A DNA stretch of 63,232 nucleotides, the filler included, from Reclinomonas americana ATCC 50394 (taxonomy: Eukaryota), in NCBI GenBank assembly GCA_048213135.1. It is 19 parts of 19 records of this genome, joined end to end, with 100 filler letters (N's around TTAATTAATTAA, not from the genome) between each part and the next. Parts side by side here need not be neighbours in the genome. Positions count along the whole stretch, not along the records: positions 41,606 to 53,650 come from AFZH01020172.1; positions 53,751 to 56,365 come from AFZH01020173.1; 17 more parts are not named here. One strand, 5' to 3'. The stretch's first letter is position 1. Each line of letters begins with the position of its first letter. The notes under the pieces were generated by a model. The model did no database searches. It was not told where the DNA came from and saw only the letters and a list, made by a program, of their open reading frames with translations. This document shows positions 41,606 through 55,829 of the stretch, one piece after another. Both the position numbers and the translations under genes were made by a program.

Positions 41606-44600
41606 GGCTGTCAATCGGCAAGCACACGGAGCGACACGACTTGCATCGATTCATGCGCTCGGCCGGCGAACAAGCCGTCATGGTCTGTCATGTTCGATGC
41701 ACGTGCGAGTGTTGTCGTGCCGCGGTCTCCTCACCCTCTGCACGCCATGCCACGCAGGAAAAACTCATCTTCTCCGGCAGTCTCGACGACCCCGCAGCAA
41801 GATATGTGAGCGCGCCATCGGTGAAACAGGCACCCGCGTCGGCCATCTCGGCATTCACCGACGGCAACATGGGCACGCTGCCGGCTGATCAAGTCCCGTT
41901 GGATGCCGATGGCGCAGCGCAAATGGAGGTTGATCGACTTCAGTTGCAGCAACAAGAACTGCTACAGCAGCAACAGCAGCAGCAACAACGACAACAGGGA
42001 GATGGACAGCAGGAAGAGGTTTGAAGGAGAGATATCTATTGTCGATATCCCTCAGTGATGCTCATCCACTCATTGATTGTGCAAGCAGGGTGTCACTGCC
42101 CTTTCTTCCAGTGTACAACAGTCGCTCCAGTTGTGGATGGACACCGTGATGCACGATCCGGCTGTGGCCGAGGCAATGGCAGCCGACGAGGGTGGTGCCA
42201 CGGTGGAGGACGGTGACACACGGTGGTGGGAAGAGTATGCTCCGGCACCACCGACTGCCTCCTCAGCAGCAGCGAATGGTCATCCGCAAGCCACCTCTGT
42301 CTCTGTGGGCTCCTCGCAACTGAGTGTGTGGAAGGTAGGTTCAGCGGGCGAGCGGTGGTGGTACTGTGTGCTCACAGACTCGCAGAGGTGCCCACTTCCC
42401 CTCGGTCCCTTCCGTTGTGGTGCGCGCGAGTCGGTCCCAGATCCGCGCCTCCTCAGACCAATTCGTGGCAACCCGGATCGGTGGATCGCTACGCTGGATC
42501 TGAGCTCGGAGAAAGGGCGTGTGTCGGGCGACGGCATTGTCGAGTACGAGGCCGTGTCGTCTGGTGTTGTCGATGTTGCGTGATGACAACGTAGCACATG
42601 CTTGCACCATCGCCATGCTCACTATGCGAGCAGAGCTCGGCTGGCACCATCGTGTCCTCACTGCATGCCATGGTGGCGCGCAAGCTCGACCGACGCTTCT
42701 ACCCCACGTTCATGGAGGAGGACGAGTTGCGACATTTCCACCGACCCCGCTTCCCCGAGGTCTGTTGTCAGAATGCATGTTCGGCGTAGTGTCACCTGTC
42801 TCATGGCCGTGGGCAGATGGTCAAGCGCGGCATCTATCTCCCGATGCATCACCCGTCGGCAGCACAGCAGTTGCACCCACTGCTGCGCACGGTCATCAAA
42901 CAGTATCAGGAGGCGAAGCAGGTTTGCAGTTGTGCTCATCGCCTCTGTTTCTCAAGTCCCTCATCATTGTCTTGTTGCACACAGCTCGGTTTCCAAGTGG
43001 CCAATGGCTCGCACAATCGGCCGCAGCTCAGCCTGTTGGACACGGAGCACCTGGTCAGCGTGTTGCCGATGACAGAGCGACTCGTGTGTCTCGAATACAT
43101 TGTTGCGTGGCACTGCGCGGGGAGTTGGTGTGCTTGAAACTGACCATGCACACCGACAATGCACAGGAGGCGCATCCGGTTGTTCTCAACAATCTCGGCA
43201 TGGCCATGCTGCTGGTCAACTATTACAAGAAGCGCTCCGCCGACGACTCGCACGTACCCACAGTGTCACACGGCAAGGTGCGTTCATCGCTTCCCCTGCT
43301 CCCTCGCCTCAGTTTCCTCACTGCGGCTATCCGGCGTGACAGGTCACGGTGCTCGGTCCACAAGACGAATCGCCGCTGCTGGCTCCGACGCCACCCGGTC
43401 AGATCGTGTCGAGTGCCGAGTGCGGTCTGTTCCGTGCCGAGGTGTATCCGTCGCCACCGCCCTCGTTTGTGGCGGCCACTGCTGCTGCCATGCACAGGAT
43501 TCGCGGCAAGGAGACAGTTGCGCGCATTTCTCACATGGTGCATGTCGATCGTCTGTACTGACGAGATGAGCACCACCCCAGCGTGTGTCGGAGCTGGCCA
43601 GTCAGATCGACTCGTCCGAGGTCGGTGGCGACTATCTGATCATTCGGCGAGTAGAGCGCGGTGCCGACGGCGCCCTCAACGAGCATTTCTACATTCGACC
43701 CATGCCCGAAGTGTTCACCGTCGGTCGTCTCCAGCCGCGCTTGTCGGTGCGTCCAGCCGTGATTGGGAAGCAGTCGACAGTCTCCTAATCACTATACATG
43801 CAGGTTCCGGCCCCCGGTTCACGTCTGGACACGGATCTGACGAAGAATCGACTGCGAGCGTACATTCACAATCTGTTTGTGCAGCGACTCAACGATCCCG
43901 AGCATGTTGCGTGTTGTGTGTAGCAAGCAGGCTGTCAGCACGACGTGAATGCTGACCGGTGCGCTCGTAGGGTGAGGCGCGCGTGCAAATGGGTGAGATC
44001 TCGGAGGCATTCCAAGCGCAGACCGACATTCAAGTCCGCAAGACTCTGAATGTTGCGCACCCTTGTTGCTGCTAGACTCTGCATGTGGCGTATCGCACTC
44101 ACCGGTTGTCATGCCAAAGGAATTCTCGCATTTCGAGCGCGAAGGTGAAACCGGTTGGTGGAAGTACAGCAAGCCACCGCTTCCATCGCAGGTCTTGTTC
44201 ACAATATCTCCACCCATGCTTTCCTTTGTCACACCACTCCGCCTCACGCATACGTGCATGTCTGTGGCAGAGTACGATTGACAGCATGATGTCGCCGGAG
44301 GAGGCGTGTTTGCATGAGAGCATGAATGCCGGCATCCAGCGACGAGAGGATCTGGGTGTGGTGTGTACGCACTGTCATCCTTGCTTCGCGCTGCTCTGCA
44401 TCTCACCCTTCCAACGCGCTGTAATCGCAGAATCGCTCGCGCAGCATGCTGGCATTCGCCGTGTCACAAGGCATGTTCCCGGAGCAGCATCCAGGCATCA
44501 TTGACACCATCAAGTTTATCGAGGATGTGCTGCGAGTTGCGTGAGATTTGCCACTGTTGTTTTCTCCCTTTTGCCACCTCGTCTCTGAGTGATCACTGCA

Positions 44601-47529
44601 GCATGACCCGTGGAACACCTCCGGCAACTTTGAGGCCGCCGTGCGTGGCGCCGGTGCCATCATTGCCGACACGGAGTTTGCCGACAACTCAGACGACGAA
44701 GGCAAGCCGGTGCCGCGAGAGAAACCCAAGCCAGCACGTGGTGGTCGAGGCGGTCGCGGAGGCCGTGGTGGTGGTCGTGGCAGTCGGGGCGGTCGGGGTG
44801 GCCGTCCACGTGGTGGAGGTGGAGCCGGTTCGCCAGGTGGTGGTGGTGGCGGCGGCGGCGGTAGTCTCGATGACGACCCAGCCGCCATTCTCGACGGCAG
44901 AGCCAAGATGCCCTCGTACATTTCGCGAACACGTGCGCATGAGATTCTTGGCCATTTGGTGCCGGCCGATCGCATCAACGCCATGAACGCCAAGGAGCGA
45001 CGCGAAACAGTGCGCAAGTTCCGCACCGTGCGCGGTCGTTGCGTGTGTTTTTAGCTCGCCTCTCTGTGGTGATGGTCGGCACTTTATTCACCTTCTCTCT
45101 CCCACTCCATCAATCAGACCGCCCCACGAAGCGCGAAGAGGATATTGGAGGTGCTGTGAGTGGGCGACGCGATGCTGGGCCTGATGACGCAGCAGCTGCG
45201 GCACGCTCGGCCACCGTGATTCTGCGTCGCATGTTTGAGCGTGAAAGCAATCGTCTTCGCGATGTCAGCTCGCCGCAGGTACGCGTGCACTGCATGAGAT
45301 TGGCAACACGCCGAGGCGTCAGTGCTCACAATGCATGCCACAGATGTCACTGTACAAGTCGTACCTGGAGTTGCTGAAGCAGCGAGCTGCGGAGGAGTCG
45401 GAGAAGAGCGAGAATGAGCTGCGCGGCGCTGCTGCTGCGCTGCGTGTGCGGAGTGCGGCAGCTGGTGGTGCGCTGATGATTTCACCTTGTGCTTGGTTCA
45501 TGTGCGGCTTGTCACCCACTCACTGGCACCTGTGGCAATGACACAGAGGGCGAGGACATCCAGCTGTCATCGTCGGTCACGGGCGATGCCTCCAACACGA
45601 CGATTTCGTCGTCGTTCAGCGAGTTGGAGCTGGATGATTTGGATCGCGAGCTGGCCAACATGATGGAGGTGAGGGGGAGGACGACGTGTGGTGTTTGCCC
45701 TTTTTCTCTGTCGCTCATCACTCGGCACAGGGTGAGGACGATGACGATGAGAGCTCGGAAGACGAGGAAGCACAGCTGCATCGATTCATTGGCGAGCTCA
45801 GCGTTCAGCGCAAGCAGTCGGGAGCGTTGCGTGTCTGGCTGTTGGATAACTGGTGTGTGGCGATTCTCACACTATGGCATCACAGTGAGCAAGTGGTGGT
45901 GGAGCGACGCACCAAGATTCGGTGGAGGAGAAAGGTGACTGGGTGGATGGAGGTGACGGATGGGTACAAGGTGGGTCAGGCACTAACTTGCTGGCGATGG
46001 GATGCGTAGGTGCAACAACCGAATGGCCAGTTGGTGGAAAAGGAGGACATTATCGACGACCCGGCGGCTGTGCAGCGTTTCCTGGCGGAGCGCAAGAAAC
46101 GGAGGGCATTCCTGGAAGGGTGTGTGTGAGAGACAGAGTGTGAACTGCAAAGGATGGTCGTTGACGCCTTCGGTTGCCGCTCTCGTGTGCAGTGCTGCTC
46201 TGCGTCATTCTCGCGAGCTGGGCTTCTTCCGTGGCAAGGCCGAGCGTCGCCGTCTGCTGGATCAGTTCCGCCGTTTCCGTCAGCAGTACGTGAAGAACGC
46301 CGAGCAGGGTGACATTCGTGACCTGACGCGCGAGATGGCGCTGGTGTGTATGCGCGCTGCTTTCTGTTGTCGTTTTCGTTCACCACCTTGATCGACTGCC
46401 TGACCGACTGTTGCGTACCACAGAAAACCAACAGCAGCGTCAAGTGCAGTGCGTGCGGCAAGATCGGGCACATGTCGTCGAACCAGCTGTGCCCGGCGTA
46501 CGGTCGTATGCGTCGCACGCCGGGTCAAAAGTCGCACGTCAAGGTGAGGTGGTGCTCCTCTTGACACAAGTTGACGGGAGTCAGAGAAATCATTGTATGA
46601 AGTGCAGGTGGAAGGCAGCAGCATGAGATTCGATCTGAAGAACCTCCTGGTGCCGCCGTTGCGTTGCTGTTCTACCCTATCGTTGATTGGTGTATGGCGC
46701 GGGCTCACTCTGTTTCGTCGAATAATGCAGTGCACCCAACGTGCTGGTTCTGCGCAATCCCAACAAGGGAACGGAGGCCGGCAAGAGACCAGCCGGCGAT
46801 GCGGGAGCTGATGCACAGAAGCAGAAGCGACGAAAGACGTTCACGCAGGCGCTGAGCACGGAGGTGTTGCAGCCGGTGATCACCAGACTGCGGCAGACGG
46901 GCAAGGTACTTTTTTGCCACGCATTCTGCTCTCTCGTGCACCACGCTGATAATGTCTCTCCTCTCTCTCTCTCTCTTTTCCACCCTCAGGCTGGCGACTT
47001 TCAGACACCTGCGGCGCAGCTCATCATGCTGCCGCAGTACCGCCAGTTTGTGCGACAACCCATGTCGCTGCCAGACATGGAGCGGAAACTGCGCGATCTG
47101 CTGTACGCCGACGTGGCCGCCTTCCGTGCCGACTTTGATCTGATGATCGACAACGCCATTCGCTACTGCACCGGCCGATACGACGACGTAGCCATCACTG
47201 CCGGCCAGCTGCGCCAGCTGGCCAACCCCATCTTCCGCGAGGCCGCCGAGCGCGCCGAAGCCATTGCCGTCCAATATCGCGACAATGCCGGTGGTGGTGG
47301 TGGTGGTGGAGCGTCCTCGTCCACGACTACAACGACCACCACTACAACGACAACGCCGACTACAGCCACGACGCCGTCGACTCCAGCCGGCGCCGGCTCA
47401 TTAGTGGCCGACTCGCCGATGCTGAACCACGACGACGATGACGGCGGTGCGTATGACGATGAAGACGAGGAAGATGACGAGGATGATGATGAGACCGACG
47501 AAGACGACGATGAAGACGGTGGGTGGTGA
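41606..47529 (+). CDS. TAF1: TFIID subunit 1 (core domain, Zn-knuckle, single bromodomain), start in gap
   Basis: RFYPTFMEEDELRHFHRPRF, LEYIEAHPVVLNNLGMAMLLVNYYKK, MMSPEEACLHESM, IEDVLRHDPWNTSGNF, KCSACGKIGHMSSNQLCPAY, YRQFVRQPMSLPDM...LMIDNAIRYC; about 24 introns. Confidence 0.93.
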
Positions 47530-47701
47530 AAAACGAAAATGAAATGAAATGCTTGCGCGACGTTACACGTGTGTGTCCCACGCCGCCCAGTCGTTGCTCC
47601 AACGAAGATCCACGTGTGATTGTGCTCATACAAGTCAGAGCGTGTCTGTGTGTGCGTGTGTGTGTGTGCGTGTGGCAAAGAGAGCGCGTGATTGCGTGGA
47701 C

Positions 47702-50700
47702 ATGGCGTCGTCTGCGGGTGGTGACAGCCGTCGCTCACACGGCGGCACAAGCAGTGGTGGTGGAGGAAGCAGTGCAAGTGGAGGCAGTGGAGTAGGTGGC
47801 GATGAGAGTGGACTGAGTGGCGCTGGCTTGGCGGGTCCGTCGGGAGTCATGGAGGGCTCGTTGTTTGCGAAACTCAAAGGTGGCTCACGCGCATAGCATA
47901 CACGTGTGTGAGAGAGAGTGAACTGATGATGATGGTGTTGTGTGTGTGTGCAGCGAGTCTGCTGCAGATGCTCAACTTGAATCGCCCTGTGCCTGTGGAT
48001 CCTGCCGCGCCCATCTTCCAGCCGGGTGTCAACGGTTTGAGTTGTCTCTCTCTCACTCACACACACACACACACTTGTCTCACACTTGTCTCTCTCTCAG
48101 AGGAGGTATGGAAGGTGCTGGTGATGGATCAGTTCTGCGTGGACGTGGTGGGTCCTGTGCTTCGAGTGGGAGATCTACGCAAGCTCGGCGTCACGCTCAA
48201 TCTGTTGCGTGTTGGAGACAACTCACTCCTCTTCTCTCTTGCTGGTTGGTGACACCCTCTGTCTCTGCAGCATGCTGGATCAGCAGCGTGAGGCAGTGTC
48301 GGATGTGCCGGCCTTGTACTTTGTGGAGCCGACACAGGCCAACGTGGACAAGATGATTGCGGTGGGAAGGAGAGAGAGAGAGAGCTTGTCTTGTGCGTTA
48401 GCAGGCAAGTGACTTTTTCGTTTTCCACGACACTAGGACTTCCGACGATCGCTGTACGACTCGTACTTTGTCAACTTTTGTGCGCCGGTGAAGCGGGAAC
48501 AGTTGCAGGCGCTGGCTGCCGGCTCGGTGACCAGTCACTGTGCTGGGCGTGTACAACAGGTACAGAGCACGCAGAGAGGAAAGGGCACATTGCAGCGACG
48601 CATACTGACTGCGTGTGTCTGTGCCTGTGCGATGTGTTGCAGGTGGTGGATCAGTTCCTCGACTTTACGTGCATGGAACCGAATCTGTTCACGCTGTTGC
48701 GACCAAACACGTTCCTCGCCCTCAACGATCCCTCCAAGTCGGAGAGTGCGCTGATGGAGAGAATCAACTCGATTGTGGACGGCATTTTCAGTGTGGTGGT
48801 GACCATGGTGCGTCAGAGGGGGAAAGAAACGGAGAGGCTTCTCCTCGTGCGGTGGTGCATGACTCTTGCGCGGCACAGGAAGTGACGCCGTACATTTGCG
48901 CGATGCGTGGAGAGGCGGCAGAGATGGTGGCCACCAAGTTGGACGAGAAGCTGCGTGCGCACTTGTATGAGCAGGCGCAGGAGTCGGAGGAGTGGCGGTC
49001 CATGTTGAATTCACGACCTGGTGAGTGCAGCCGTCTCAAGGTTCACCTTTGGGGTGCCGCCTCACTACTCGCTCGTGCAGTTTTGTTGATTGTCGACCGG
49101 AGCCTCGATATGGGTGTGTGTTTGCATCATCCGTGGACCTACAAGGCGTTGGTGCACGACGTGCTGGGCATGAATCTGAATCGTGTGACTGTCGAAGTTG
49201 CGCCCGCACATTGTTTCAACTGCGTGCGTGATACTCAATGTGTGGCGGGGGGAGAGCAGCTGGCCACCGAGGGTGACGACGCAGCAGCTGCAGCGGCAGC
49301 AGCGGCGGCTGGTGGAGCTGGCCCATCAGGCGCCCCACCCGCACGTGTGCAAACAAAGAAATACGATCTGAGTCCCGAAGACGATTTCTGGATGAGCCAC
49401 GGTCTCATCACCTTTGAGCGTGTCATGGGTGCGTCTAGTCGAAGCCGTCTTCCCCACATATGCACACACACTGAATGTGCGTGCATGCATGCGCAGAGGA
49501 TGTGGATGTCAAGGTCCGACAGTGCGAGGACGATATCAACACGATTCGTCGCAAGACCGGCATCGATGTGGAGGCCGATCCAACAGGCGGTGGCGGGTGA
49601 GGGTGCCGTGTTGTATATGATGGTCAAACCATTGTCGATTATTGACACGCTGTTGCAGTGGAACATCCATGGAGGAAATGACGTCGGGCATGCGTTCCAT
49701 TCCGGAGCTGCTGGCCAGGAAAAAGTCGCTGGCCATGCACACCAACATTGCCGCCACCCTGCTGCGTGCCATCAAGGCGCGCGACTTGCACAGCATGCAT
49801 CTGCTGGAGCAGAATATTCTGCACTCTCGCTCTGTTGTTGCGTCGTGGTTCCACTGCCACCACACGTGTGTACCTGTCAGAATTCTGATGATTGTTGGGC
49901 GCACAGGATTTCACCGATGTGCAACGCATTTTGGAGCCGACGCATGCGTCGACGGTGGAAGACAAACTGCGCCTGTTCCTGATGTACTACTTGTTGGAGG
50001 ACAACATCTCCCGCGACCGGTTAACGCTGCTGGAGCAAAAGTTGACTGAGCAGCGCGCCGACATGAGTGCCTATGCTTTCCTTCGACAGTTGAGTGCACC
50101 CAACACGTCATAATTGTTGTGATCAGCACTCACCGTCGGGTGGGTGACGCAGATTGAAAACCATGCAAGGCTCACTCAGCACCATGCGTGGTGGCGGTGG
50201 TGGCGGGCGGAATTCTGACATGCTTTCGTCGTTTGCCAACAAGGTAAACACGGGCAGAATTCTTGTCGATTGTTTGTGCCTGTCTCATGTCGTTGCCGGT
50301 GTTTTGTTGCACAGTTCCGCATGCTGGGCGACCACGTCAAGGCGGGACTGGGTATGCATTCGGGCAGTGCCAAGTTGCCGGTCACCAAGACACTGCAGGT
50401 GGTGATGGACGGGCAGCGCGATGCCACCGAGCACGCCAACCTCTTCTTCCTCGATCCCAAGGCCGTGTCGAGCCAGCCGACCAGTGGCGACGGCATGCCA
50501 CGCAACTTCCAAAAAGCGATTGTGCTCACCGTGGGTGGTGGCACCTACGCCGAGTGCCAGAATGTGTTCCAGTATGCTGCCGAGACGGTGAGTCTCCGTG
50601 TGCTGCTCTCGCCCCCTCCATCACGCCTCTTACTCGATGTGCAGGGCAAGTACATCGCGTACGGCTCGACGGACATTGTGACGGGCGGGCAGTTCCTGAG

Positions 50701-50740
50701 CCAACTGGAGGCTCTGGGCCGCCTCACTGGCTCACGGTGA
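47702..50740 (+). CDS. SLY1: Sec1/Munc18-family SLY1 (SCFD1)
   Basis: VWKVLVMDQFCVDVVGPVLRVGDLRKLGVTLNL, DVPALYFVEPT, LLIVDRSLD...LHHPWTYKALVHDVL, MHTNIAATLL, AIVLTVGGGTYAECQN, IAYGSTDIV. Confidence 0.95.
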
Positions 50741-50827
50741 CACGAAGCGAATGGAGAAAAAGAGAGAGACGAGAGAGTGCGTGCGACAAAGCAATGAAAA
50801 GCAAAGTGAGAGGAGGAACACCGCGTT

Positions 50828-51550
50828 TTACTCAGTGGCCGCATCAGTGGGGTCGACAATCTCCTCGGCGGGCGAGAACGGCGGCGAGTTGGCACACAGA
50901 ATGTAGGACCACTCACTCGCCGAGTGATTGTGATAGCCGTGCTTCTGACCGACCGCCGGTCGCCGCTCGTCGCCCACCTCCATCGAGCAGAGCACACGCC
51001 CTCGCTCGTCCACCTCGCCCACCGCTGCCACATCACCAGCAACGCCCAGCCGATCACGCAATCGCCGACCCGCCTCTCGCGTGCTGTCCACGGTGTCGCC
51101 CTCCCGCACCTCCCACCACGCCTTTAACGCTCCACCCGCATTCCCCAGCACGGCCTCCCACTCGCGCATTCCCTCGTGGTGATGCGTAGGCAAGCGCCGA
51201 CTCGGAGCCACACACAGGCGCACCACACCAACGACTCCGGCCTCCTCCCAAATCACATCGACGCGACCCCACGGCGGATGCTCACGCACAAACTCCTCCG
51301 CCTCCTTGACCGCCACGTCACACTCGCCAACACGCACTCGTCGACACCCTCCACCCGCACAATCGGCATTTAGCAGCGCACAAATGCGCGCCAAACACTC
51401 CGCCATGCTCTTCCTCTCCTGCGCAATCAGCGGACCCACATGCCGCAACACAAACTCCGCCGCCACTGCATACGGCAGCCACTGTTGCGCATCTCCGTCG
51501 TCGCCCTCCAGTTGATACGCGCAGCCGTCCACATCGCTCTCAATGATCAT
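50828..51550 (-). CDS. Cupin-domain protein, apparently intronless
   Basis: PWGRVDVIWEEAG..RLCVAPSRRLPTHHHEGMREWE...KHGYHN...ILCANSPPF fits the cupin HxH..E..H metal-site pattern. Confidence 0.65.
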   Translation of the reverse strand: MIIESDVDGCAYQLEGDDGDAQQWLPYAVAAEFVLRHVGPLIAQERKSMAECLARICALLNADCAGGGCRRVRVGECDVAVKEAEEFVREHPPWGRVDVIWEEAGVVGVVRLCVAPSRRLPTHHHEGMREWEAVLGNAGGALKAWWEVREGDTVDSTREAGRRLRDRLGVAGDVAAVGEVDERGRVLCSMEVGDERRPAVGQKHGYHNHSASEWSYILCANSPPFSPAEEIVDPTDAATE

Positions 51551-51603
51551 TTGTCGCGCCGGGTATTGACAGGTTGCAAGCGCTGTCGCGTTTTCTTCTC
51601 GAG

Positions 51604-52242
51604 ATGCACGTGGAAGCAATCAACGACGTGTGCTTTCTCGTGCACGGTCTGCTTGGAAGCACACGCGAGCAGCTGGCTCTGTACGACGTCGTGCGCGAGG
51701 CCTACACAGCGACTGGCGAGCCGCACGGAGCACTGTCGACACTGCACAAACGCGCTCGTCCCAACGCCGCCAGTCGCTTCCTGCTGGCGTTTGAGAGCGG
51801 TGCACAGGCGCGTATCGCGCACGAGCTGAGCGAGTGGGCACAGCAGGCGGTGCGTGCAGTGGCCGAGGCGGACAGGGAGGTGCCGGCGACGGGCGAGGAC
51901 GGGCGTGTCGATGAGTGGGTGGCGCCAAATCGTCTGAACGTCGTGCTGTACCCGCTGGGCACGACTCTGCGACAGCACATTGATCACTGTGCGGGGTGGG
52001 TGATCATTCTGTCGCTCGGCTGCGCGTGCGAGTTTGTCATGAGCGGCGTGACGGTGCGCGTGGAGAGTGGCGATGCGCTGGTGTTTCCCGGATCGACCTC
52101 GGCGGCCATTGTGCATGGCGTGGAGGCTATTGTGGCGGCCTCCTGCCCCGAGGAGCTGGGCGTGGAGGTGCCAGTGCTACGCGACAGTCGCGTGTCGGTG
52201 CAGGTGCGCGACGTGATCGCTGACCGGCCAGTGGGACAGTGA
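51604..52242 (+). CDS. AlkB-like 2OG-Fe(II) dioxygenase, intronless
   Basis: NVVLYPLG..LRQHID...IILSLG...ESGDALVF...HGV...RVSVQVR gives the HxD...H...RxxxxxR signature. Confidence 0.85.
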   Translation: MHVEAINDVCFLVHGLLGSTREQLALYDVVREAYTATGEPHGALSTLHKRARPNAASRFLLAFESGAQARIAHELSEWAQQAVRAVAEADREVPATGEDGRVDEWVAPNRLNVVLYPLGTTLRQHIDHCAGWVIILSLGCACEFVMSGVTVRVESGDALVFPGSTSAAIVHGVEAIVAASCPEELGVEVPVLRDSRVSVQVRDVIADRPVGQ

Positions 52243-52265
52243 GTGAGTGCGTGGAGGAGAGAGGA

Positions 52266-53316
52266 ATGGCCGCCGCTGCGTATTCTGGCAGTGCGGTGGT
52301 GGAGCTGGAGGTCGACTCGGTGGAGGCCATGGTCGACACGTGTGCGGCACTCAGAGCGCGCTCACTGCTCGGTGCCGATGTGCATGCATGCCTGCTCATT
52401 GGGTGCGTCTCTCTGTCCACCCGTTGCGCCTCTCTCTTGCATGCACTGACGCTAGATGCAGACCGAGCTCGCATTCACCGCTGCCTCGGAGCATGGTCGC
52501 AGCAGTGGCGCGGGCTATTCTCGAACACATGACCGCGGAGACAACGCCGGCGGTGCTGTGGTCGGGCGGCGATCCCGTGTATCGACGGGCACGTGAGGGC
52601 GGCAACGTGGCCGACGTCATTGTGTCGCTGATGCAACTGGCGGGCGATCGTCTTCCGCTCGTCACCAGTGCCTGCATACAGCACGAGGATTACATGGCCA
52701 GTGCGCCGGCGTGCCACACGGTCCGCGTGTCGTACAAGAAGGTGTGTACATGAATGAGCGTGTTGCGGTGTGAGCTGTCCTCAGTCGTGAGCGTCAGGGC
52801 ATGGCCGTGTCGTCGGTCACGGGCAAGCCGACATTTGGTGGTTTTGAGAAGCAGCTGCCGCAGCGTGCGATGGCCATGTGGAAACGCGCTGTGCTGGCGT
52901 TGACAGAGCACCGTGATGAGCTGGTGGTGAACGCCTCGTTGCATCCGCCAGAGGGCGTGGTGCCGCTGGCCGCTGGAGGTGCGAGGACCACGCACACGCA
53001 GTTCTTCTCTCCGGATCGCGGGTCTCACTTGTCTTCATGCACAGTCGGCTACCTGTGGGCGTTTCCCGTCTGCTGCCGCTCGCTGACAGTGTTTGTCATT
53101 CCACGGGCCGGCATGATCACGCTGCAGGAGCTGTTGTATGTGCAGATGTTGCTGCGGGGCGGAGCGGCGGCACTGTCGGTGGTGGCCGTCACGTGGGACA
53201 GCATGGAGCGCGGGTTGAGTGAGAAGAGTCAGTTTGCCGCCATCATGGACGTGGTGCACGAGTTGTGCGACGAGTTTCCGGCACAGGCGCGGGTTTTGAG
53301 AGTGGAAGAAGACTGA
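52266..53316 (+). CDS. Uncharacterised alpha/beta protein (weak SLOG/Rossmannoid resemblance)
   Basis: Spliced ORF (2-3 introns): CLLIG|CR...LWSGGDP...VFVIPRAGMITLQELLY; ATG 23 nt after the AlkB-like stop. Confidence 0.6.
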
Positions 53317-53814
53317 ACAGCGCAGCGCATACATAAGTTGGTGGTTCTTATATTGGGGGTTTCGCAGGGTAGATTGATTTCTCTTCTTTCTCTTTCTCAC
53401 AAAGTGATGCTGCTGCCGCGAGTCGGTGTGACGCGGTGGGAGCACGGCTACACTGCCGAGCTCCCTCGTGGCCCCCTCACCAACAGTCAAAATTGAGGGG
53501 TGCACCACCGACTCTGGCCAGCAGGCAACAGCAGTAACAGGGTCAAAAAAATACCACACATGTACAGGTGGAGGTGGTGTGGTGGTGTGGATAAACAAAC
53601 AGGTTAACAAGATCCGAAACAAACAAACAAACAGAGAGTAGTAACAAAAANNNNNNNNNNNNNNNNNNNNNNNNNNNNNNNNNNNNNNNNNNNNTTAATT
53701 AATTAANNNNNNNNNNNNNNNNNNNNNNNNNNNNNNNNNNNNNNNNNNNNTCACATACGCGCAGAGAGAGAGAATACCGGGAGCGGAGGAACAAACACCC
53801 CTTCTTGCACACTC

Positions 53815-54295
53815 ACCAGTCTCAGCCTTGACATTGGCCAACACGTCCATGATTTGTGTGGGAAAGAGATAACACGGGAGAAGTGGTAGAGAGAGAGTGT
53901 GTGTATGTGTATGTGTGTTAAGTGGTGGTGAAGCAAGTGACGAGCGCTCCACAACAAGTCGACAAAAACAAAGTTGCGTTGTTCGAGAGCAAGTTGGCGC
54001 CAAAATAATCGCGCGCGCGACTCGGAACCGAACATGAAATCAAAACGGCGCCGTCCGTCGCTCCAGCGAAATGGCGAAATTGAGCTCAAAAAACGCAAAT
54101 AATAGCACTGCTCAAGTCGCGTCGCCGACGAGGGGAACAGCAGCAGCTGGCGGCAGTGGAGCACAGTGTGCAAAAGGGAGCAGGCAGCGGATCATAACAG
54201 CAGCCAGCGCGGGAGGACATTGGCCGACAGTGCTCGCGCGCAACGGACTGTCCATTCGTAATCAATCGCAATCATCACAATGGCGACGCTGGCGG
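53815..54295 (-). CDS. Possible spliced coding fragment of unknown function
   Basis: Exon-like blocks (LLLFPSS...FMFGSESRARLFWRQL; IMDVLANVKAET|gtgag) bounded by plausible splice sites; frame joins not resolved. Confidence 0.3.
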
Positions 54296-54718
54296 CTTCA
54301 GGTGAGCATCTCGTCGTGGTTCTGTTAGGGCAATGAGCAAGAGAGAGCGCACGCGCGTCTGCGTGCACGTTGCGAAAAAATGTTGAAAATGAGTCGGGGC
54401 ATGTGCTGAAAGTGGGCATGTACACTTTTGGTACTCGCACACACACACACACGCACGCACACATTCACGCAAGCGCTGCTCGTGTTCTATGAGACACACA
54501 CACACGCACACACACAAAGAGAGAGAGAACGCATGCGAGTGAGCGACATGATCGGCATCGATCAATCTGATTGTTCATGAGTCGAGAAACCCGACCGATT
54601 CCCTTCTTTCTCGTCGCTGTTATTGTTGTTGTTGTTGTTTGTGAGCGAAGACACACCCGTCACACTGTCGACTACCACACTGAGCGCGTCAGAGAGAGAG
54701 CAGAAGAAGAAGCAGAAG

Positions 54719-55829
54719 ATGTTGGTCTCTGGTGGTGAGTTCTTCCTCGTTGTGAGAATCATCATGAGCCTGTGTTGTGTGCGTGCGTGTGAGGCTGCTT
54801 GTCACTATAATGGGCGACGACACTGGTCTTTTCGTTACACGCACGCACGCACACACACACACTCTGCCTGTTTCCTGATGAGCAACATTCCTGTCATGAG
54901 TGCGTTCTCTCTCTTTCTCTCTCTTGCGTCTCGTGTACTCATGTGTGGGAGTTGTGCTGATGCACAACTGACGCGCGTGTGCTTTCTTCTTCTTGCGTTC
55001 ACTCGTCGTCGTCTGTCTTGTGCGAATGAGTGAGAGAGAAAGAGAGAGGGAGTAGAGATTGATTGCGTGACGCAAGCACATCACATCCATGTTCACTTGG
55101 CTCCTTTTTTCTGCGTCAGTTTGATCATTCTGTGTGTGGATTCTCCTCTCTTGCCTTTCCTTTGTCATTGCCTCGTCGTCGTTGTTGCTGTGTGTGGGCA
55201 TTGCGCTCACGGCTGTTTTGTTCGTGCGCGCAGATCCATTTAAGGGCCTCGATGAAGACGAGCCGGAGTTGGAGCCGAAGAACATCGTCCGTTGCGTGGC
55301 TTCTCCTGTGTGTGGATGAGAGAGAGAGAGAGCGTGTGCTGAAACTCGTGCGCAGACATTCGCATCCAGCAACGTAATGGACGCAAGAGCATCACAGTTG
55401 CGTTTCTCAGCCCCAACTCACGATTATGATGACGATGATGATGAGACTCACTGCTGCACTCGCCCGCAGACCGTCTCTGGCCTCCCACCCAAGTTGAGCG
55501 CGAATGCGCGTGGCCCCTTTTCACTGTTTCACTTTCTCACCAACGCACATGCACGCACAGGCTGAATGTGAAGCGAGTGCTGCAGTACTTCAAAAAGGTG
55601 TTTGCCTGCAACGGCAGCATCGATGAGGACACAGAACACGGCAAGGTGCTGAAGCTCTCTGGTGATCAGCGTAAGCTCATTTCTGAGTTCCTGGTCGCCG
55701 AGGAGATTGTGCCGAAGGAATGCGTCAAGGTCCACGGTGAGTTTTTCCCCCTCCACATGTGCTCGCCGCTTACTCGCTGCTTCTTCGCGTGCTCACTCGT
55801 TTGTCGTCGCGCTCTGTGCAGGTTTCTGA
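54719..55829 (+). CDS. SUI1: Translation initiation factor eIF1 (SUI1)
   Basis: Six exons give MLVSGDPFKGLDEDEPELEPKNIVHIRIQQRNGRKSITTVSGLPPKLNVKRVLQYFKKVFACNG...LSGDQRK...VKVHGF*. Confidence 0.97.

Follow-up and report, generated by a model that had tools for sequence, protein, structure and literature searches.

A GTTGCGT class of 5' splice sites coupled to the last exon base in Reclinomonas americana may be read one base out of register

In other eukaryotes the last exon base (position -1) pairs with C9 of the U1 small nuclear RNA (snRNA), and 5' splice sites (donors) usually compensate between an exon-side G at -1 and an intron-side G at +5. At human donors Roca and Krainer reportedly recognised a shifted register in 2009, the sites being rare, atypical and of the form GUUAAGU. 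Human shifted-register 5' splice sites, at which the U1 pairs are moved by one at rare atypical donors, are established (Tan et al. 2016, PMC4856993; review PMC9311317). Here, we analysed a 63,232-nucleotide stretch (filler included; hereafter the window) of Reclinomonas americana ATCC 50394 (assembly GCA_048213135.1), which belongs to the nuclear genome, is rich in introns and has a G+C content of about 55%, and found two classes of donors, an ordinary one and one mostly of the form GTTGCGT, whose use goes with the last exon base. The GTTGCGT donors resemble the human sites (PMC4856993) in a poor U1 match in the usual register and a better one in the shifted register, in an intronic G at +1 that would lie opposite C9, in a U following the GU, and in having no need of G at -1. 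They differ in having a consensus of their own, GUUGCGU(G), and in making up about a quarter of the introns and most donors without -1G. Shifted-register sites are recognised by a better U1 match after shifting and by a -1 profile like that of the upstream canonical position; both features are found at the GTTGCGT donors, the match being weak in absolute terms.

Three other systems are close enough to be compared. As in the usual compensation between -1G and +5G, donors without -1G have the stronger intron side; however, the change is here mainly one of register by a single base, and the same-register form is rare (T|GTGCGT at 30238). Bulged-nucleotide registers (Roca et al. 2012; Tan et al. 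2016) likewise have one extra U at +2 or +3 and an extra nucleotide at the U6 stage, but bulged sites as described keep the exon pairing, whereas here G stands at -1 in 0/28 or 1/31 donors, according to the intron set, and -1 shows the profile of -2. In the intron-poor genome of Ostreococcus lucimarinus the donors are strictly GTGCGTG, and changed snRNAs were speculated upon (Irimia and Roy 2008, PMC2483917). The window shares with that alga GC at +3/+4 and a strong CTGAC-type branch site; unlike it, the window is intron-rich, and the accessible portion of the Irimia and Roy text mentions neither a shifted class nor 'GTTG'. COPB2, one of the genes of the window, shows no greater similarity to green algae than to animals (68-73% identity). 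A paper on tunicates raises a shifted register only as a possibility. Our search of the main texts in one literature collection found, among the papers listed, no description of a genome-wide GTTGCGT or shifted donor class, and the organism's own genome paper may hold one. What is new here is the scale and the rule, namely an invariant consensus of its own, about a quarter of the introns, and 28 of the 35 donors without -1G.

The evidence base is these 63 kb of one genome, and all introns are predictions by a purpose-written exon-chaining program that took in codon log-odds, the absence of in-frame stops, GT...AG boundaries and a length prior, with a donor score on intron bases only. In the first version of the program GTG[CA]G and GTTG[CA]G received a preset bonus, for which reason its output cannot show that these motifs are donors; the exon base was never scored. 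The matrices of the second version were trained on the output of the first, and since the first COPB2 exons were lost in it, its use was limited to filtering for consistency. We call donors ordinary if they carry G at +5 (GTNNG), and shifted if they read GTTNNG, mostly GTTGCGT, without G at +5. The first-pass set comprises 120 introns on 16 chosen contig strands, of which 74 form a high-confidence subset selected by signals only (45-130 nt, branch motif and YAG required), and 89 introns were predicted under both parameter sets (the both-set introns). The set used for weight matrices omits four refuted or gene-bridging introns and the plus strand of contig 38021, leaving 22 shifted and 46 ordinary donors, while 14 contig strands entered the codon-background test. 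Counts vary slightly among the analyses as different subsets were kept. The homology work was done on single exons. Two or three long predicted introns join neighbouring genes, and those at 47519 and 50737 were dropped from the count for the range of positions 41,606 to 55,829, to which the preliminary description of this DNA referred and which consists of one contig with TAF1, Sly1 and an AlkB-like gene and of the eIF1 contig. A listing of alternative GT/AG pairs by open reading frame (ORF) alone was too permissive for ranking junctions and was left unused.

Donor class and last exon base were strongly associated in every set. In the first-pass set, G stands at -1 in 63/83 ordinary, 1/31 shifted and 5/6 other donors (Fisher p=3.9e-13); the corresponding figures are 39/48, 0/22 and 4/4 in the high-confidence subset (p=2.3e-11) and 50/57, 0/28 and 4/4 in the both-set introns (Fisher p=2.9e-16). 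The claim of the preliminary description that a non-G exon end goes with the shifted donor is borne out by this last table of the -1 base against +5G/+6G on the 89 predicted introns. Within the range that it covered (45 introns), G precedes 0/16 shifted, 23/27 ordinary and 2/2 other donors, and none of the four ordinary donors after a non-G base there was reproduced by the second parameter set. The coupling is present in each intron phase. Third codon positions in the coding sequence of the window are 74% G+C, with A at only 10%. Compared with the codon-position background, 9.0 G were expected before shifted donors and 0/27 were seen (P=1.3e-5), and 18.5 were expected before ordinary donors and 46/52 were seen; the larger part of the coupling is the very strong requirement of ordinary donors for G. 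Measured against the raw motif, the lack of G before shifted donors is marginal, as among GTTG[CA]G copies G precedes 1/29 of those used as donors and 15/81 of the others (p=0.064). The shifted class amounts to about a quarter of the introns (28/89 both-set, 31/120 first-pass) and to four in five donors without -1G (28/35, both-set), the ordinary donors without -1G being at most seven in that set, only one of them verified by homology. Without any gene model, GTTGCGT occurs 33 times in the window against 11.0 +/- 3.2 times after shuffling, none of 100 shuffles reaching 33, and a branch site plus YAG lies 50-100 nt downstream of 19/33 GTTGCGT copies against 1204/7350 (16%) other GT positions (p=1e-7). 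These results confirm two donor classes coupled to the -1 base.

Exact junctions were obtained in several genes. In eIF1, the donors given in the preliminary description are all in place: G|GTGAGT at 54735, C|GTTGCG at 55291, A|GTTGCG at 55397, A|GTTGAG at 55493 and G|GTGAGT at 55737. Intron 2 (tcc|GTTGCGTG, 55291..55355, plus strand, 65 nt) splits a codon whose parts C and AC give the His before IRIQQRNGRK. Exon 3 (IRIQQRNGRKSIT) matches residues 4-16 of 4uer_F, and exon 5 begins at residue 25, its second residue being 26. Because the eight intervening residues equal the 23-nt exon 4 plus a split codon, the donors of intron 3 (aca|GTTGCGTT, 55397..55469, plus strand, 73 nt), itself placed by homology to 4uer_F, and of intron 4 (caa|GTTGAGCG, 55493..55560, plus strand, 68 nt), placed by the same residue count, are fixed to the base. 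At the junctions of eIF1 that homology fixes, GT...AG are the only standard boundaries left. The last intron (acg|GTGAGTTT, 55737..55821, plus strand, 85 nt) is ordinary according to sequence and gene model.

Nine H|GTTGCG donors had been attributed to TAF1, and all nine stand in the gene models on the plus strand. The first (gat|GTTGCGTG, 42575..42633, 59 nt) was predicted under both parameter sets and has a branch site and CAG; the exon after the second (att|GTTGCGTG, 43102..43166, 65 nt) begins exactly at position 101 of the DUF3591 profile; and the exons flanking the third (aca|GTTGCGCG, 43517..43581, 65 nt) match DUF3591 139-177 and 181-214. The intron at 44052..44270 (aat|GTTGCGCA, 219 nt) is longer than typical and was found with both sets. 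The others, given by the gene model, are cat|GTTGCGTG at 43906..43970 (65 nt), cga|GTTGCGTG at 44536..44601 (66 nt), gtc|GTTGCGTG at 45038..45117 (80 nt), agc|GTTGCGTG at 45826..45885 (60 nt) and gcc|GTTGCGTT at 46658..46730 (73 nt). By contrast, the TAF1 intron at 43278..43342 (aag|GTGCGTTC, plus strand, 65 nt) is ordinary, and the profile runs across it from DUF3591 101-136 to 139-177.

The Sec1-family gene of the same contig is a Sly1 orthologue, as it matches yeast Sly1 (1mqs_A). Three of its plus-strand introns are shifted and lie between exons with collinear matches: tct|GTTGCGTG (48204..48270, 67 nt) between Sec1 profile positions 1-28 and 31-59; gtt|GTTGCGTC (49837..49906, 70 nt) between 300-353 and 375-410, the upstream exon also matching residues 389-430 of 1mqs_A; and aca|GTTGAGTG (50089..50152, 64 nt), after which profile coordinates stay collinear through the next two exons. 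A fourth, gaa|GTTGCGCC (49197..49259, plus strand, 63 nt), is an uncertain candidate that occurs in one model and was not reproduced in the second set. Its length is a multiple of three, it holds no stop, and the first model reads through it as exon; if retained, it would leave the frame intact and lengthen the protein by 21 residues beside an alanine-rich insert.

Outside the range, a shifted intron of the NAP gene (gga|GTTGCGTG, 8175..8257, plus strand, 83 nt) is flanked by an exon that matches NAP profile 174-235 and runs on for eight residues and by one that matches 244-265 from its second residue. In single-exon Pfam searches, which covered 47 of 74 exons, coordinates were collinear across NAP 8175, Sly1 48204, 49837 and 50089/50244, and TAF1 43278 and 43747. 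COPB2 lies on the minus strand of contig 27539-33260, with its C-terminal part on contig 22823-27438 across the linker at 27439-27538, and carries at least 15 introns. Compared with eight homologs, 15 of its 16 predicted junctions are gap-free. These include the shifted intron ttt|GTTGCGTC (30512..30576, minus strand, 65 nt; also outside the range), whose junction agrees with all eight, and an intron with an ordinary donor after a non-G base, ctt|GTGCGTCG (30168..30238, minus strand, 71 nt), which is a verified exception to the rule. The sixteenth junction, predicted at 28651, was refuted by the homolog alignment.

The exceptions named in the preliminary description fared unequally. Of the non-G exon ends said to keep canonical donors, T|GTGCGT of COPB2 at 30238 stands by homolog alignment, while A|GTGAGT at 23988 appears in one parameter set only. 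The sole shifted donor said to follow G, at WNK 13705 (minus strand; G|GTTGAGT, first intron 544 nt), was likewise predicted with one parameter set, is absent from the other and is unverified; it would equally be a perfect bulged GTGAGT after G. A T|GTGTGT donor at 12841 (minus strand, WNK) proved to be an artefact that arose where a gap interrupts the gene, the true donor being gag|GTCTGT. A further A|GTTGCGT at 12753-12759 (minus strand) directly follows the WNK kinase motif LMTSGTLK and has its acceptor lost near the gap. Only two GTTGCGT copies in the window follow G, at 30755-30761 (minus strand) and 21415-21421 (plus strand); both lie in predicted exons and are unused as donors. The former is in COPB2, where the real donor follows 17 nt further downstream and no deletion is seen at the copy in the alignment with homologs.

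The two classes also differ in how closely the intron side is prescribed. Shifted donors of the high-confidence subset (22) have G at +4 in 21 cases, C at +5 in 19, T at +7 in 17 and G at +8 in 11. The pair GC stands at +4/+5 in 18/22 of them; GC is also the commonest pair at +3/+4 of ordinary donors (14/46). Donors after G have a loose intron side, with GC, GA, GT, CT or TT at +3/+4 and even GTAAAC or GTACTT, so that -1G can leave the intron side almost unconstrained. G is missing from both +5 and +6 in four donors after G, namely GTACTT at 46906, GTAAAC at 50244, GTAACT at 15789 (minus strand) and GTCTCG at 37467; collinear coordinates in the Sec1 profile support the one at 50244.

Moved by one, A|GTTGCGT equals AG|GTGCGT at seven of eight positions of the weight matrices. 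The reading we favour, at odds of about one in two, is that recognition of the 5' splice site of GTTGCGT introns is displaced by one base from the usual register, a single word being presented as AG|GUGCGU or as A|GUUGCGU. The donor-recognising machinery would then need G at the slot of the last exon base and U, G and U at the slots +2, +5 and +6. The required G may be supplied by the last exon base (AG|GUNNGU) or by the first intron base (A|GUUGCGU), where the extra U would keep the downstream bases in place. Cleavage would precede the first GU of the word, so the exon of the shifted class need not end in G. The near-invariance of the rest of the shifted word may offset the mismatch at the +1 slot, and later steps, in which U6 would pair one base further in, would have to tolerate one extra nucleotide.

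Both U1 as the reader and the register that it uses are what we infer. In phase 0, A precedes 8/16 shifted donors, compared with 17% of non-G-ending codons that end in A (p=0.0025), and ordinary donors have A at -2 in 19/46. The -1 base of shifted donors behaves like the -2 base of ordinary donors, which supports the shifted register, and on the exon side the shifted alignment gains 2.7 bits per donor over the bulged one. For the consensus shifted donor and the universal U1 end, computed with no pseudouridine terms, duplex energies are +0.9 (canonical), -0.4 (shifted) and +1.7 kcal/mol (bulged). The idea of the preliminary description that one 7-mer is kept and the cut moved by 1 nt fits the consensus, the excess of A at -1 and these energies; it is unproven, as a bulged U fits the intron side equally well. 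The U1 energies by register, which it had proposed as a check, put the shifted register about 2 kcal/mol ahead of the bulged one, with shifted donors weak in any register. Its further suggestion, that the purpose of the shift is to relieve exon ends of the coding constraint of -1G, finds no support as a cause in counts of synonymous G and of phases. In phase 0, 10/16 shifted donors follow a codon able to end synonymously in G (60% expected for non-G-ending codons), and shifted introns in phases 0, 1 and 2 number 17, 5 and 9 against 32, 25 and 21 ordinary ones, with no shifted enrichment in phases 1 and 2. G would alter the amino acid at 20/30 shifted sites, simply because a synonymous G is never available in phases 1 and 2. 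Freedom from an exon-end G is a consequence of the shift, not its shown motive.

Several observations tell against a shifted register. Shifted-donor duplexes are weak whichever register is taken, with a median of -1.6 kcal/mol against -6.3 for donors after G. At -0.4 kcal/mol, the shifted-register consensus is less stable than GUGCGU without -1G (-2.1), so that duplex stability leaves unexplained the roughly fourfold preference for shifted donors at non-G ends (28 against 7). The near-invariant GC at +4/+5 remains unpaired with the two pseudouridines of standard U1, and since it cannot pair there, the donor reader may not be standard U1. On the intron side the bulged-U alignment fits as well, and likelihood under the weight matrices does not separate the two there. 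The gene models are the output of our own predictor, which rewarded both motif classes, though never the exon base, in advance.

A bulged U, which we regard as possible but doubtful, would make these donors ordinary GU-GCGU sites with an extra U (at +2 or +3) looped out of the U1 and U6 pairings and the cut unmoved; only donors without -1G would then be selected for a perfect intron side, which would account for the coupling. Scored on the ordinary matrix, the bulged alignment fits at every position of the intron side (-14.0 bits for 10 positions, compared with -18.4 for 11 with the shift), and whichever model holds, the U6 stage has to accept an extra nucleotide. For human sites, PMC4856993 and the review PMC9311317 describe bulged registers at +2/+3. 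However, the bulge offers no reason why the extra U should accompany non-G ends, it leaves the preference for A at -1 unexplained, and its computed duplex is the one about 2 kcal/mol worse than the shifted duplex. It should also make -1G more useful, yet G is absent from that position in all 28 both-set shifted donors and present in a single one of the 31 first-pass donors. Donors after a non-G base whose GTGCGT or GTGAGT is perfect and unbulged have been verified, but are few (30238).

Less is to be said for a divergent or second U1-like snRNA, with a 5' end complementary to GUGCGU and possibly a variant for A|GUUGCGU, which we consider unlikely. It would answer the near-invariant GC, which standard U1 cannot pair at either +4/+5 of shifted or +3/+4 of ordinary donors, and the duplex energies with the universal U1, which are too weak. 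The same possibility was raised for the GTGCGTG donors of Ostreococcus by Irimia and Roy (2008, PMC2483917), and human variant U1 genes exist. On the other hand, donors after G tolerate almost any +3/+4, as with a loose match to standard U1, and nothing in the window speaks for such a gene directly, as an Rfam search of the 63 kb gave 0 matches and so no snRNA gene there. To our knowledge, moreover, the U1 5' end (standard ACUUACCU) is almost invariant across eukaryotes. From the weak duplexes and the unpaired GC it would follow that either G opposite C9 has special weight in the U1 small nuclear ribonucleoprotein of this organism, or the guide RNA differs from the universal one, possibly in two variants. 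As a tentative extension, with clearly less than an even chance, there may be two co-equal donor grammars on one spliceosome, with a reader anchored on the G opposite U1 C9 and not on the cut site; the organism may also carry a divergent U1 5' end, or there may be two U1 variants that differ at position 8 and are matched to AG|GUGCGU and A|GUUGCGU.

If the two-grammar reading were true, this would be the first genome in which shifted-register recognition is no rare oddity but accounts for a major donor class under selection, and it would offer, in thousands of introns, a natural system where the choice of the cut site is uncoupled from U1 binding by one base. The class would offer thousands of natural tests of how the cut site is chosen after U1 binding and of how important the exonic G is, and it could serve as a lineage marker. 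Splice-site predictors and annotation pipelines work with a single register and would systematically mis-annotate a genome in which about a quarter of the donors are GTTGCGT after a non-G base.

Introns of the two classes are alike beyond the donor. Median length is 66.5 nt for shifted and 69 nt for ordinary introns; the branch motif CT[CGA]A[CT] (CTCAC or CTGAC) is the same in 22 shifted and 46 ordinary introns, for which the motif was a selection criterion; the distance between the branch A and the 3' end has the same median, 20 nt, in both (range 12-45); and both share (G/A)CAG as the acceptor. All predicted introns begin with GT and end with AG by construction. Judged from these signals, the shifted introns appear to be genuine GT-AG introns of the major (U2-type) spliceosome. 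U12-type introns have an RTATCCTT donor, a TCCTTRAY branch site near the acceptor and no exon consensus. A separate minor-type spliceosome for the GTTGCGT introns would suit a donor that is a near-invariant 7-8-mer and makes no demand for an exon G, as in the U12 type; it is very improbable, because length, branch motif, spacing and acceptor are the same in both classes, and moreover GTTGCGT is unlike RTATCCTT and roughly one quarter of introns would be an extreme share.

There is an equally slim chance that the whole pattern is an artefact of gene prediction, with misplaced junctions and a coupling created by the scoring. The models are indeed predicted, GTTG[CA]G was rewarded in advance, and the junctions at 28651 and 12841 proved wrong. 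But false calls would bring background bases to the exon end, which was never scored, and would dilute the coupling; eight shifted junctions are supported by homology; and the motif-only tests, on the excess of GTTGCGT and its 3' signal, are independent of gene models. Hardly credible at all is an origin of the shifted introns as copies of a mobile intron (introner) that brought its own donor: their uniform length and invariant start would agree with it, but they share no sequence beyond the signals, the best matches in an all-against-all blastn of 95 introns of at most 130 nt being simple repeats and the shared 6-mers per intron pair numbering 1.41 within shifted, 1.44 within ordinary and 1.43 between the classes, and ordinary introns are equally long.

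For the first coding exon of eIF1 there are two candidates on the plus strand, 54719-54734 (ATG...G|GTGAGT, 499-nt intron) and 54878-54899 (ATG...A|GTGCGT, 334-nt intron), both of which would join the acceptor at 55234. A search with a COPB2 exon gave at least 120 homologs, the best about 73% identical and, among the matches listed, none a close relative or the sequence itself, and a metagenome scan with this exon gave 80 loci, with the best again 73% identical and no near relative among them. The Sly1 exon 49907-50086 had no match in PDB, a search for homologs of a Sly1 exon at an overly strict cut-off of 1e-10 found none, and a TAF1 exon gave two weak repeat-like matches in a representative library, which were left unused.

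By Pfam searches of long ORFs and single exons, the window holds genes for NAP, a WNK-like kinase, COPB2, an LRR protein, a GST-like protein, TAF1 (with DUF3591, zinc knuckle and bromodomain), an AlkB-like protein, eIF1/SUI1, a kinase-RING protein, a TPR protein and the Sec1-family protein; in the protein atlas the TPR protein matched generic TPR clusters only. Homopolymer amino-acid runs (G/R-G repeats, D, E, T, Q, N and A) are common in the coding sequence of the window, inside proteins that are conserved elsewhere, among them TAF1, NAP and Sly1. The window is divided into its 19 contigs by 18 blocks of 44 N, TTAATTAATTAA and 44 N, for example at 27439-27538, 41506-41605 and 53651-53750, which are of the six-frame-stop type and were taken as scaffold gaps. 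Many of these linkers adjoin (GA)n/(CT)n or poly-C runs, suggesting that the assembly breaks at microsatellites.

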